NCBI GenBank assembly: GCA_964526215.1
Contig: CAZGKP010000001.1
Coordinates: 1 to 50,306 of the forward strand
Source of the DNA: an uncultured Candidatus Sumerlaeota bacterium
GTDB lineage: Bacteria; Sumerlaeota; Sumerlaeia; MWCT01
Direction: 5' to 3'
Length of the DNA stretch: 50,306 bases
How positions within the stretch are numbered: the stretch's first letter is position 1; every line of letters starts with the position of its first letter. Under the pieces are notes generated by a model. That model was not told the DNA's origin. It searched no databases and was given only the letters and a program-made list of their open reading frames with translations. The position numbers were made by a program, and so were the translations under genes. Of the stretch, positions 34,994-37,937 are shown in pieces.

Positions 34994-35053
34994 CAGTCAG
35001 TTGTCCGTTGTATGCACTGCGCTTTTTTTACCTTTTGCCTTTTTACTTTTTAC
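34994..35053. repeat. Heptanucleotide arrays (cagtcag ttgtccg ttgtatg ... ttttacc ttttgcc tttttac tttttac)
   Basis: Three in-phase heptamers at 34994-35014 and four at 35026-35053, in the same 7-nt register. The stop codon of the radical SAM gene (35050-35052) lies in the last unit. Confidence 0.8.
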
Positions 35054-36342
35054 TTATTCAGTTCGTCGGTGCCTTCGGTGCGCCAGTATAGGGGACAGGC
35101 CCCGGTGCAAATCTCTTTGTATTCACAGTTCTGGCAGGGCGCAGGTAGAAATCGTTTCTCCTTAAAGAAACGGGCACGCTTCCCGTTCCAGACATCCCGA
35201 AACGGCTGCTTCAATAAGTTGCCCACGCTCTCATCATAACTGGAGCAGGGCAGGATACTGCCATCGGGAGCGATGCTTAAAAGCCCATCGCAGGCGGCGC
35301 ACGATTTATTCCCGAGACCTTCGGCAATCGGATTGAATATGCAATAAGGGGTTGGTGAATACCACAAAAATCTTATGCCCGCCCGGTGTGCCTTCTTTTT
35401 TATGGCGAGAATGATAGGCGGCAGGTCCGAATAGGCAAGTCGGAGTTCGTCCAGAGAGCCCACCGCCGCACCGCAGGGTATCATCAGATTCATAGAGAAT
35501 CTGTCCAGTCCGAGCGACTTCACAAATGACACAAAACCATTTGCGGCATCCCGGGCATTCAGGGCGTTCAGGGTGGTATTTGTATGGACGGTTATGCCAG
35601 CCTCGCGAAGAGCATCGAGACCACGAAGGGTTTTTTCAAATGCCCCCCGGACGCCGACAATTCGGTCGTGGAGCGCTGGCATTGACGCCTCAAGGCTCAC
35701 CTGTGCGCTGTTCAACCCGGCGGCTTTCAGGCGCTTCACGCGCTCGGTGGTTAAGAGTGTGGCGTTCGTGATGAGATTGGTGCGCATACCGAGTTTGCGG
35801 GCATAGTGAATAAGTTCCTCAAGGTCTTCACGGAGTGTCGGTTCACCGCCTGTGAAGCTTGTGCTGGGCACCCGGGCGTCATTGTAAATGATATCGAGGA
35901 TGTGCTTCACACCAGATGTATCAAGTTCGGGAAATTTGGGGAAATTACCTCCCGCATAGCAAAATCGGCAACGTAGATTACAACGATACGTAATGGCAAT
36001 CTCGCTCAGGACGGGGAGAGTATTTATGGGTGGTTTGAATTCTACTTCTTCGATGCCGAGCCGCCCAGAGCCTTCCCGGAGGCATCCCATCACGGCGGCG
36101 CGGATGTCGCAAAAGAAGTAATGAATCTCGCGCCGCGCCCCGGCATCATCGGGGACACTCTCTAACAAATCGGAAATTGAGCGACCTGCAAGCAGTTCCT
36201 TCAGAAGCCACACACCGGTGCGGTTCAGTTTATGCGCCTGATTCGGCACAAGGATAAGCAGGGCATCTTCCCGGCGCACATAGATATAAGGTTTGATTTC
36301 CCGGACGAACGAATCAATCCACTTGAGGTCTTCAGGGCGCAT
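35050..36342 (-). CDS. Radical SAM/SPASM-domain peptide maturase with an N-terminal PqqD-like (RRE) region
   Basis: The track ORF starts at 36402, but ATG 36342 overlaps the upstream TGA (TGATG) and gives 430 aa. It has the radical SAM motif CNLRCRFC and a GGEPTL SAM-binding segment. The SPASM-type Cys pattern is CAACDG...PDGSILPCSSYD...CQNCEYKEICTGACP. The N-terminal segment ALLILVPNQAHKLNRTGVWLLKELLAGRSISDLLESV resembles PqqD. Confidence 0.85.
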   Translation of the reverse strand: MRPEDLKWIDSFVREIKPYIYVRREDALLILVPNQAHKLNRTGVWLLKELLAGRSISDLLESVPDDAGARREIHYFFCDIRAAVMGCLREGSGRLGIEEVEFKPPINTLPVLSEIAITYRCNLRCRFCYAGGNFPKFPELDTSGVKHILDIIYNDARVPSTSFTGGEPTLREDLEELIHYARKLGMRTNLITNATLLTTERVKRLKAAGLNSAQVSLEASMPALHDRIVGVRGAFEKTLRGLDALREAGITVHTNTTLNALNARDAANGFVSFVKSLGLDRFSMNLMIPCGAAVGSLDELRLAYSDLPPIILAIKKKAHRAGIRFLWYSPTPYCIFNPIAEGLGNKSCAACDGLLSIAPDGSILPCSSYDESVGNLLKQPFRDVWNGKRARFFKEKRFLPAPCQNCEYKEICTGACPLYWRTEGTDELNK

Positions 36343-37937
36343 CAGTGGGCACCTCCGCTGACGCACGCCGAGTGGCAGGCGGAATGACACGCACTGTGGC
36401 ACGCAGAATGGCAGGCGCTGTGGCAGGCATCGTGACAGGCATTGTGGCAGGCGGTGTGGACGTAGCAGGCACTATGGCAGGCGTCGGATGAAATGAATGT
36501 CGCATAAGTCGCCGCGTCTTCCGGCACGATATCAGCCTCACAGACAGATTCCTCGAGCATATCGTATTCGCGCAGTCTAAAACGGAACCCATACATCTGT
36601 CCTTCCTCTTCCTCGAATCTCTCTTCTTCCGGTGGTTTGGGTGGAGGTGCCTCAAGCCGTGAGCGACAGTATTTCTTTGTCGCCTCGATGTCGCAATCCC
36701 ACGCCTTTCTCTGGATATTATCAACCGCCTCGATAAGGATGCCCTTCACCGTTTCCCGCTCAAGTGTATTATCGGGGCGGATGGCGGCAAGGATGCCCTT
36801 TTCATAATCATTTGCGGGAGGAGAAATCGGGTTTTGCCCACGTTCAACTCGCAACGGCGTTGGTGAAATGATGTGGATGAGTCCGCGCTCATTCATCGAA
36901 TATAGCAGGACGGCGAGGATGCGTTTCACCGGCATTTCAAGGAGGAGTGCGCCCTCGAAGTCATTCAGTTCGGCAACTTTGCCCGTTTTACGGAAGCTGG
37001 CAACCTGGATTTTGGGAGGCACCCAGTCGGCTCGTTCCCACATCACCTCCCGCACACTTTCAAGGGCGATTCTCTGAGACCTGACTTTTCTACCGGCGAG
37101 GATTGCTCCAAGGCTCATCAATGCACCGATGATGGCAAAACCGCCAAGGGGAAATTTTTCGCGTTCTGGCTCGTGTCGCACTACGCGATGCGGTGCTCCG
37201 CGACGTCCGGCTCTGCGTCTCGCCGGGGGCGTAAGTGAAAAATATTTCGCGTCTATATATTGCTGGACGTGGAGTCCCTTTTTTCGCGGGACGTCTTTCC
37301 AGTGCAGGCGCACAGTCAGCCAGTTCTTTCCCCTGTAGGGCTGTCCGTAGTAAGATATGAGATAACGTTTGTTCATCCATTTTTCCGTGCGGAAGGTGAA
37401 TTGTTCCATATCTTCGGGCTTCATCTCGGTTTTCTCAATCTCAATAGGATAGTGCACATAGAGGGTATAATGTTCCAGCGGTTCATCCCAGCCAATGGTT
37501 GACCAGTTTAAGACGACGAGTTTTTCGCCGGTTTTAGCGGTGGTATAAGCAAGGTAGCCATCGCGGGCAAGGTCGGCGGCATAGACCACAATAAACGTAG
37601 CATCGCCACCGAGAGCCTTGCCACCCGTCAGGATGATGTCGTATTTCTTTTTACCCACCTTCTTTATCGAGAGTGGATATTGGTGATTCTGCGCATCCAT
37701 CGCCTTGCAGGATGTGTAATCAAATATCGGGGTCGTTTCCGAGGGTTCAAAGTAGAAGCCGTGCATCTTGCCGGACAAAACACGGTAGCGGATTTTATAC
37801 ACGATAACGGTGCGTCCATTAGCGTTAAGGGAAAGGTCAGTTTCCACCCACAGAAGGTCTGTCTTAAGCGCCCACGAACCCGATACGAGAGAGAGATATA
37901 GAATCCCCGCTACAATGCTCTGCAATCGAATTCTCAT
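36342..37937 (-). CDS. Membrane protein (DUF2207-like layout) with a C-terminal Cys-His-x-Ala repeat tail; putative substrate of the adjacent maturase
   Basis: 531 aa with an N-terminal signal/anchor [16 protein letters not shown], a ~240-aa domain, an internal TM helix [21 protein letters not shown], a ~200-aa region containing [20 protein letters not shown], and the tail [49 protein letters not shown]. Confidence 0.8.
   Translation of the reverse strand: [531 protein letters not shown]
36345..36482 (-). repeat. 12-nt-period coding repeat encoding the (C-H-x-A)n tail
   Basis: Codon-by-codon reading gives nine C-H-x-A units. Adjacent 12-nt units are never identical; for example, the Ser codons run AGT, AGC, TCT, AGT, TCC, TCG. 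Confidence 0.9.

Follow-up and report, generated by a model that had tools for sequence, protein, structure and literature searches.

The DNA considered here, a stretch of 50,306 nucleotides (nt) from an uncultured Candidatus Sumerlaeota bacterium (assembly GCA_964526215.1, contig CAZGKP010000001.1, positions 1 to 50,306; hereafter the window), carries a three-gene cassette in which a radical S-adenosylmethionine (SAM) enzyme is encoded next to a membrane protein ending in a ladder of Cys and His residues, and this tail is probably the substrate of the enzyme. Gene A (36342..37937, on the minus strand, as are all features below unless otherwise indicated) was identified as an open reading frame with homologues elsewhere and encodes a bitopic membrane protein of 531 amino acids (aa) with the ladder as its tail. 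Gene B (35050..36342) encodes a 430-aa radical SAM/SPASM enzyme, assigned through Pfam, NCBIfam and structure matches, whose N-terminal domain resembles the recognition element (RRE) of peptides that are made by ribosomes and modified after translation (RiPPs). The third conserved member of the cassette, gene C (33534..34529), encodes 331 aa counted from the ATG at 34529 and was recognised by its homology to the gene that follows B elsewhere.

Genes A and B overlap in the sequence TGATG (36340..36344), in which the TGA that ends A runs into the ATG that opens B (36342-36340), an arrangement that suggests translational coupling of the two genes. The start of B at 36342 agrees with the N-termini of its homologues and with the public gene call of 430 aa. 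An original prediction, made by a model from the letters of the DNA, had described A and B with their coordinates, lengths and overlap, all of which were reproduced on the sequence. It had overlooked gene C, the constant length and nearly unvarying sequence of the tail, and a second subfamily termed A2/B2.

The ladder tail of A

The C-terminus of A is composed of two conserved elements, a pre-ladder motif (aa 477-486; 36480..36509) and the ladder itself (aa 487-531; 36345..36479), which ends in (HSAC)x5-VSGGAH and is the proposed substrate of B. The ladder holds 10 Cys (aa 487-525), 8 Cys-His dipeptides, 8 C-x3-C intervals and nine H-x-A-C units. These figures correct the first description, in which 11 Cys, ten Cys-His pairs and nine C-x3-C intervals had been counted; the eleventh Cys is C466, upstream of the ladder. 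The repeat unit, described at first as C-H-x-A, has to be redefined as well. Among 147 orthologous tails, every H-x-A triplet is followed by Cys (1252 of 1252), and wherever the adjacency of Cys and His is broken (YV, V, FT and others) one or two residues are inserted with H-x-A-C left intact, so that H-x-A-C is the real repeat unit. The His position of the first unit is occupied by Tyr or Phe in some lineages (CYEGA, CFEGC), and Ala is invariant in the later units.

The tail, of about 46 aa, is the best-conserved part of A, being nearly identical across phyla when compared with a remainder of the protein that is 36-59% identical, and exactly eight C-x3-C intervals are found in 78 of 80 genome loci, most of the loci having one 46-aa string in common. 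Third codon positions are only 40% identical among the 29 loci that share an identical 46-aa tail, and the five CHSA units of the window tail are written with five different Ser codons. An identical peptide maintained under free synonymous variation means that selection acts on the peptide, and the tail is a fixed module under purifying selection, not drifting low complexity. Nearly all complete orthologues retain the tail; the exceptions are the homologue P0014, in which it is degenerate, and the locus L113, in which it is interrupted by an in-frame stop.

Immediately before the ladder, the conserved motif follows the consensus [S/D/T/N]-[Y/F]-[S/A]-x-F-[V/I/M]-x-S-D-A. Across 146 tails, Y/F at position -9 is present in 112, and F at -6, S at -3 and A at -1 in 106 each. 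A short and conserved segment at this place is a natural candidate for the docking site of the RRE-like domain of B.

Individual members of the family show peculiarities of the tail. In L113 (1560-1800), the ladder-protein gene directly upstream of B has an in-frame TGA after ...CFEGCFNPPAFAS, which could be a selenocysteine codon, a read-through site, the mark of a pseudogene or a sequencing error. The ladder protein of L122 (2575-4089) runs on past ACVSGG with GGGSSGGGGSSGSW and ends in GGGGSSGGGGSSGSW, an extension resembling the Gly-rich C-terminal tail typical of ordinary proteins of the DUF2207/TPM type, and hinting that the ladder evolved within such a tail. The protein P0027, of 102 aa, consists of little beyond the pre-ladder motif and the ladder, and may represent either an independent precursor or part of a gene cut short where a contig ends. 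A search with the tail among 1.84 billion representative proteins returned 47 matches, a number probably shaped by composition filtering and unusable as a count of the family.

The membrane protein that carries the ladder

At its N-terminus, A begins with a signal peptide or signal anchor (aa 1-23; 37869..37937), as judged by hydrophobicity and by a helix at residues 2-20 in the AlphaFold2 (AF2) model, and the N-terminus has such a hydrophobic stretch in 75 of 81 members of the family. It is followed by a beta-sandwich (aa 25-229; 37251..37865) that resembles the N-terminal part of DUF2207 proteins, was modelled with a predicted local distance difference test (pLDDT) score of about 90, and would lie outside the cytoplasm. 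In Foldseek comparisons, this domain matches the N-domain of M1 aminopeptidases and ribophorin I/OST1 (E 5e-7 to 1e-5). Next comes a single internal transmembrane helix (aa 264-282; 37092..37148; AF2 helix 265-297), the sole internal 19-mer with a mean Kyte-Doolittle value above 1.5. An N-terminal signal or anchor together with one internal transmembrane helix had been proposed for A from the outset, and hydrophobicity agrees with it.

Beyond the helix lies a conserved alpha/beta domain (aa 300-430; 36648..37040), delimited by conservation and the AF2 model and presumably cytoplasmic, in which residues 326-430 reach pLDDT values of 80-90 and the columns W300, W305, P308, G319, K320, W413, D414 and D416 are invariant. 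The invariant W-D-C-D of this domain (aa 413-416; 36690-36701) sits within a conserved KAWDCDLEATKAYY segment. Foldseek results for A are dominated by the outer beta-sandwich and yielded no class for the cytoplasmic domain. The presence of a signal peptide, one transmembrane helix and a partner enzyme that needs a reducing, SAM-containing compartment leads to the topology adopted here, in which the beta-sandwich would face outward and both the alpha/beta domain, of winged-helix-like appearance, and the ladder would reside in the cytoplasm.

The resemblance to DUF2207 that had been suggested for A stays below the threshold for the window protein, which reaches 21.8 bits with PF09972 when the gathering score is 24.4; its fold is consistent with a ribophorin-I-like beta-sandwich. 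Its homologues P0003 and P0001 score 24.1 and 19.8 bits, and a precomputed PF09972 match exists for P0008 and P0013. A precomputed match to PF27846.1, an accession that the Pfam copy used here does not report, is recorded for P0001 and P0003; part of family A may thus be covered already by a recent addition to Pfam. The full-length protein has no match in NCBIfam.

The radical SAM/SPASM enzyme

The identity of B as a radical SAM and SPASM protein, part of the original prediction, was confirmed by the models that it passes: PF04055 (Radical_SAM) at 101.8 bits against 29.5, PF13186 at 41.7 against 21.5, and TIGR04085 at 53.7 against 27. The radical SAM cluster motif CNLRCRFC (aa 121-128; 35959..35982) has the form C-x3-C-x2-C, and its residues C121, C125 and C128 are invariant. 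The SPASM auxiliary-cluster region (aa 334-420; 35083..35343), placed by conservation and domain models, contains seven conserved Cys (334, 348, 366, 403, 406, 412 and 416), with the typical C-x2-C-x5-C-x3-C found as CQNCEYKEICTGAC; no conserved Cys occurs beyond C416 among the orthologues. The other motifs that had been read in B (CAACDG, PDGSILPCSSYD and CQNCEYKEICTGACP) are all present. The nearest solved structure is SkfB (7e-18), followed by PqqE, CteB, SuiB and anSME.

Solved SPASM structures align to B only from about residue 108 on, and the part that precedes this point (aa 1-108; 36019..36342) is the putative PqqD-like, or RRE-like, domain suggested by profile and Pfam matches. A profile of this region finds as its best PDB match the lasso-peptide RRE TfuB1 (E 0.0076), with PqqD at E 1.1. 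PF05402, the Pfam model of PqqD, matches the N-termini of 16 of 22 orthologues (best E 3e-5), and TIGR03859 gives E 0.037 on B. The PqqD-type RRE that had been ascribed to B is weakly supported through most of the orthologues, the window copy itself remaining below the threshold.

No curated NCBIfam family-level (equivalog-type) model covers A, B or C. B falls below the cut-off of every such equivalog, whether its substrate is a peptide or not, and matches generic domain models only. For peptide maturases, the scores and cut-offs are 85.6 against 400 for the ACGX model (TIGR04340), 105 against 625 for StsB, 74.6 against 340 for PapB, 69.6 against 300 for SkfB, 82.2 against 265 for MftC, 120.4 against 381 for PqqE and 86.9 against 650 for WgkB; those of ScmE/F, GeoRSP, nif11-3 and GDL are not reached either. 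A CXXX-repeat maturase model was not among the 25 best NCBIfam matches of B. Placement in a family with a known non-peptide substrate would have spoken against peptide modification, and B lies far below all cut-offs of that kind, with 146.6 against 500 for AhbD, 142.1 against 500 for NirJ2, 129 against 650 for AhbC and 91.3 against 325 for MoaA; the anSME model, on the SPASM part alone, gives 33.6 against 349.

The third member of the cassette

Gene C is homologous to the gene located after B in the loci L001, L003 and L005 (E 1e-29 to 1e-45), and its call of 331 aa is identical in a public collection. The AF2 model (pLDDT 77.9) shows four transmembrane helices and a C-terminal alpha/beta domain, placed in the cytoplasm, and an invariant RQ-TTK-SGY motif is found in the sequence. 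The protein has no match in Pfam or NCBIfam, and a fold search returned nothing significant, the best result being YbjN, of a chaperone-like family, at E 0.078. It may be speculated that C is a membrane partner that holds the tail or relays a signal.

Distribution and synteny

A word-indexed protein search yielded 16 homologues of A. By using a pattern scan restricted to one genome per species, relatives were found in 334 species genomes of at least 15 phyla, mostly uncultured, including Sumerlaeota, WOR-3, Armatimonadota, Planctomycetota, Stahlbacteria, Acidobacteriota, Aminicenantes, Hydrogenedentota, Nitrospirota-type bins, Elusimicrobia, Omnitrophota, Verrucomicrobia and others. The best matches come from Sumerlaeota, with 59% identity for A and 69% for B.

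Gene order was evaluated in 80 retained species-genome loci seeded with A. The order A, B, C is found in 76 of them, gene C being present in the same number, and the four exceptions are accounted for by a 100-N scaffold gap (L026) or by contig ends (L032, L042, L053). No other conserved neighbour of the cassette was found across the loci. In the reverse direction, 80 metagenome loci were seeded with B, and among the 72 with enough flanking DNA a ladder protein is present in 67. We regard the three genes as a self-contained cassette that is conserved by vertical descent.

A second subfamily, represented among these 67 loci, follows the same principle with a looser organisation. Its ladder proteins (A2) have 600-710 aa, are 23-26% identical, and carry tails with one-residue inserts that end in VSSF, VSGF or VSGGFR. 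They are paired with a subtype of B (B2) distinguished by a C-terminal extension of 36-50 aa (..KRRYLGxVxGV), a pairing that holds in 12 of 12 loci (L134, L135, L138, L143, L149, L151, L153-L156, L159 and L164) even when order or orientation is altered. Gene C is missing from this subfamily, and the order and orientation of the genes are variable. The reverse test and the pairing of subtypes lead to the conclusion that enzyme and tail travel together and co-vary. The idea that the tail of a membrane protein is the target of the maturase, advanced in the original prediction, thus gains support from synteny, from subtype co-variation and from the retention of the tail, and none of the three computational outcomes named in that prediction as speaking against it was obtained. 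As a separate observation, the A2/B2 genes are often followed by genes for a conserved protein of about 400 aa and for a Zn-ribbon membrane protein.

Proposed function

Enzymes that combine an RRE with radical SAM and SPASM domains remove a hydrogen atom from the peptide that they bind, and then either introduce a crosslink (thioether, C-C or C-O) or bring about the oxidation of Cys or Ser; several work through a series of short repeats, one after the other. Against this background, the account that we consider reasonably likely is that B docks on A just before the ladder, introduces one crosslink per unit, most likely a thioether, and leaves the product on A, where it would serve in the manner of a cofactor. 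A would first be inserted in the membrane, with the beta-sandwich outside and the ladder in the cytoplasm, and the cytoplasmic B would then dock through its PqqD-like domain on the segment that precedes the ladder and work along the nine H-x-A-C units. For each unit, a 5'-deoxyadenosyl radical would abstract a hydrogen atom and one intra-unit crosslink would be formed. The favoured crosslink is a thioether from the Cys of the unit, of the type made by SkfB, PapB, NxxcB and QhpD, because each unit has an invariant Cys, the spacing of His and Cys equals that of N-x-x-C in NxxcA, and SkfB is the nearest solved relative; the second choice would be a cyclophane of the HaaB type, linking His C2 to the Ala C-beta. 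The product would be a rigid, His-lined ladder on A, perhaps one that binds metal. Its core, almost invariant across phyla, behaves less like a diversifying secreted RiPP than like a cofactor derived from a protein or a site for metals or redox chemistry, and C would be a partner in the membrane that uses its cytoplasmic domain to hold or read the tail. The product is expected to stay on A since the core is frozen across phyla and no protease or exporter was found with it.

What the modified tail would do in the cell is a matter for a bolder proposal, which we rate as rather unlikely: a membrane-tethered, crosslinked Cys/His rail on the cytoplasmic face, a protein-derived cofactor of a new kind, could bind a row of metal ions or carry redox equivalents, coupling the beta-sandwich of A through C to a cytoplasmic output, as a housekeeping function in many uncultured anaerobic phyla.

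Several observations weigh against the modification of the tail by B as described. An RRE is weakly indicated for the window copy of B, which scores 13.8 bits with the PqqD model when the threshold is 23.4; among NCBIfam models, the heme enzymes AhbD and NirJ match the enzyme best overall; and similarity scores cannot separate thioether-forming enzymes from those in which SPASM chemistry is C-C-forming or of another kind. The topology is not decided by the positive-inside rule, the family-wide figure for Lys plus Arg being 3.3 before the transmembrane helix and 3.7 after it. In the AF2 model the tail is a helix with pLDDT below 40, a confidence too low for use. Five B-like loci have no ladder protein within 4.5 kb; four of the five are of the loosely organised B2 type. 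Finally, Cys ladders with a period of four occur in unrelated families, and the ladder could for this reason be purely structural or metal-binding.

Alternative explanations

The first alternative retains the same enzyme-substrate pair and replaces the chemistry: B would form three-residue C-C cyclophanes of the triceptide type between His C2 and Ala C-beta, and the Cys would remain free as metal ligands. H-x-A, in its nine copies, fits the aromatic1-X2-X3 motif of triceptides, with HaaB acting on H-A-A (PMC11499958), and both the tolerance of Tyr or Phe at the His position of the first unit, as for an aromatic residue at position 1, and the invariance of Ala in later units are in keeping with it. 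However, the known precursors are not described as Cys-rich, and the invariant Cys would be left without a catalytic role; the third position in the Tyr/Phe variants is often Gly, which has no C-beta. The best solved relative of B is a thioether synthase, and no triceptide-synthase model appears among its 25 best NCBIfam matches. This alternative deserves to be taken seriously and is judged unlikely.

Less probable again is a ladder that remains unmodified and binds metals or Fe-S clusters, B being linked to it indirectly, either through another substrate or by using the tail as a donor of clusters or metals. Cys/His-rich tails commonly bind metals, and the helix of the AF2 model, despite its low confidence, would align the Cys and the His residues; period-4 ladders also occur in unrelated families, which may or may not have a partner enzyme. 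Direct recognition is nevertheless indicated by the strict adjacency of A and B, their coupling, the co-variation of subtypes and the RRE-like domain, and the neighbourhood holds no other conserved candidate for a substrate.

A true RiPP whose leader would be of giant size and anchored in the membrane, and from which the ladder of about 45 aa would be cut off and then released or exported with the help of C, would agree with the combination of RRE and radical SAM/SPASM enzyme, which is the standard RiPP architecture, with the constant presence of the polytopic C in the main subfamily, and with the 102-aa P0027, in essence motif plus ladder, though it may be a fragment. It is nonetheless a slim prospect. 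Searches of A, B and C for protease or transporter domains found none, nor is one conserved nearby; C lacks any fold match to transporters or proteases, and the A2/B2 subfamily does without C altogether. A core identical over more than 15 phyla is also unlike secreted RiPPs and like the precursors of cofactors.

The reading of the tail as an artefact, that is, a chance low-complexity repeat or a miscalled reading frame beside an unrelated radical SAM gene, could appeal to the repetitiveness of the tail and to the long open reading frames of the antisense strand, but it has a negligible chance and is refuted by homologues in 334 species genomes, by a tail conserved as protein and not as DNA with five Ser codons in five repeats, and by the origin of the antisense frames as by-products of conserved genes.

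Relation to known systems

Two classes of these enzymes take proteins as their targets, QhpD acting on QhpC and anSME on sulfatases (PMC10114670, PMC8326336). In the maturation of quinohemoprotein amine dehydrogenase, QhpD makes several Cys thioethers inside a protein, QhpC, that stays functional and is not a secreted peptide (PMC10114670, PMC8326336), as is proposed for B and A, and the target sequence of QhpC is conserved as part of a working protein, as the tail of A would be. In contrast with A, the subunit QhpC is small, soluble and located in the periplasm, its links are between Cys and Asp or Glu, and it has no repeat ladder, His or membrane anchor; B itself is outside the QhpD family, scoring 18.6 bits with TIGR03906, on the SPASM part, against 453.

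The ranthipeptide enzymes PapB, which installs six Cys-Asp bridges in freyrasin, and NxxcB, which links Asn20 to Cys23 of NxxcA (PMC8326336), share with B the radical SAM/SPASM architecture and would share the formation of one small-ring beta-thioether per short motif, the Asn20-Cys23 pair having the same i to i+3 spacing as H-x-A-C. Their substrates, unlike A, are of the short leader-core kind, and the acceptors are Asp or Asn and not His or Ala. HaaB links His C2 to Ala C-beta on HAA (PMC11499958), and the triceptide synthases HaaB and HtkB join radical SAM/SPASM domains to an RRE, as B may, and act on repeated aromatic-X-X motifs, a pattern into which H-S-A fits; their precursors differ from A as short peptides with no obligatory Cys per unit. 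The systems PqqE/PqqD-PqqA and MftC/MftB-MftA, which make cofactors from peptides, have a near-invariant core like the cassette and would also resemble it in the combination of RRE and radical SAM/SPASM enzyme and in a product made for the cell itself. PqqA and MftA, however, are not attached to a protein; they measure 20-30 aa, receive one crosslink each, and give a product that is released.

The peptide systems with ACGX and CXXX repeats were reportedly defined by Haft, and these families are known as computational models only, with no chemistry established. That a CXXX-repeat target family exists in this form, as the original prediction stated, is correct: TIGR04117 (Syntroph_Cxxx, Cys-Xaa-Xaa-Xaa repeat radical SAM target) describes proteins with period-4 Cys repeats beside a radical SAM/SPASM enzyme, as in A and B. 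The tail scores 17.3 bits with this model (E 0.0037), short of its cut-off of 50. The TIGR04117 proteins have about 98 aa and are paralogous within one lineage, whereas A is a membrane protein of more than 500 aa. Features that only the A/B/C cassette has are the repeat unit H-x-A-C, a tail ending in VSGG[AS][HR], and gene C. The cassette thus appears to work like the CXXX/ACGX, QhpD/QhpC and PapB/freyrasin systems while belonging to none of those families.

The hallmarks of a RiPP, namely a leader-core precursor and proteolytic release, are not those of this cassette, in which a membrane protein of 531 aa would provide the substrate as its tail. With ordinary DUF2207 proteins, A has in common an N-terminal signal followed by a beta-sandwich that resembles the DUF2207-N type, but it differs from them by having one internal transmembrane helix instead of several, another cytoplasmic domain, and the ladder. 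Proteins with DUF2207 are usually paired with LemA (PMC12631010), and A is found instead with B and C. In the literature searched, no description of the cassette, of the tail sequence or of a link between DUF2207 and radical SAM enzymes was found. A relation of the Cys-His ladder to thiohistidine was also considered and rejected, the authors of the relevant study having found the co-occurring DUF2207 gene to be unrelated to 5-thiohistidine chemistry (PMC12631010).

The interest of the cassette lies in RRE-bearing radical SAM/SPASM machinery that is apparently dedicated to the tail of a large membrane protein, a target nearly frozen over more than 15 phyla and more than 300 species. Mining has treated enzymes of this architecture almost exclusively as sources of small secreted peptides. 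Should the tail prove to be modified, QhpD/QhpC would be joined by a second clear example in which radical chemistry of the RiPP type serves maturation within a protein, H-x-A-C would be added as a new repeat-unit substrate, and there would be a first way into the function of a DUF2207-like family and of a conserved membrane protein without known fold relatives.

Genomic context and further observations

A promoter-like site, with TTGACT and GAAAAT separated by a spacer of 18 nt, lies about 90 nt upstream of A (38024..38053); its 9 of 12 consensus positions in a scan make it weak evidence for a promoter. Between B and C, a gene for a 134-aa protein (34531..34935), recognised by Pfam and TIGRFAM matches, encodes a helix-turn-helix (HTH) domain of the MerR/excisionase type after an N-terminal half rich in Arg, Lys and Glu, with 27.7 bits for MerR_1 and 26.7 for HTH_17 in Pfam and 26 bits for TIGR01764 ('excise'). 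No homologue of this protein was found in the 80 genome loci, the gene being specific to this genome; it may regulate the cassette locally, or it may be an insertion.

Small Cys-rich precursor genes were sought around the cassette, and the only open reading frames obtained were out-of-frame overlaps within coding genes. An Rfam scan of the window found no riboswitch or other RNA element near the cassette, its sole matches being two distant tRNA genes (12376-12448 and 12529-12602, both on the plus strand). A reading of the cassette as a defence system was rejected by using PADLOC, in which A and C have no match and B has only a generic match of the radical SAM core to pVip; the HTH protein matches mad1 of the same collection at 22.5 bits. 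The exact sequence of A is absent from a collection of 15 billion proteins in which B, C and the HTH protein of the same contig are present, and A may have gone uncalled or been called with another start in the source record.

Period-4 Cys ladders of other kinds were encountered in the course of the searches. Seven proteins of 590-1163 aa (P0035, P0042, P0043, P0044, P0046, P0050 and P0053) contain very long ladders of the CE/CQ type (CETGCEVSCQTAC...), and some of these resemble phage tail or structural proteins. A third type, built of Cys-Tyr units (SCYDSCYGACYDSC...) and parallel to the Cys-His ladder, occurs in P0041, P0058 and P0061, which may be further radical SAM targets.

The cassette is flanked by the housekeeping genes mfd, cls (cardiolipin synthase), leuS, lpxD and nadA, an amidase gene and a ferredoxin-fused etfAB, and its guanine-cytosine content is similar to that of its neighbours; matching composition and housekeeping flanks rule out a horizontally acquired or mobile island. 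Within this neighbourhood, the gene for EtfB is followed by one for EtfA with an N-terminal 2x[4Fe-4S] ferredoxin domain (44839-46826), and the presence of a ferredoxin-fused EtfA with EtfB would be consistent with an anaerobic lifestyle of the host.

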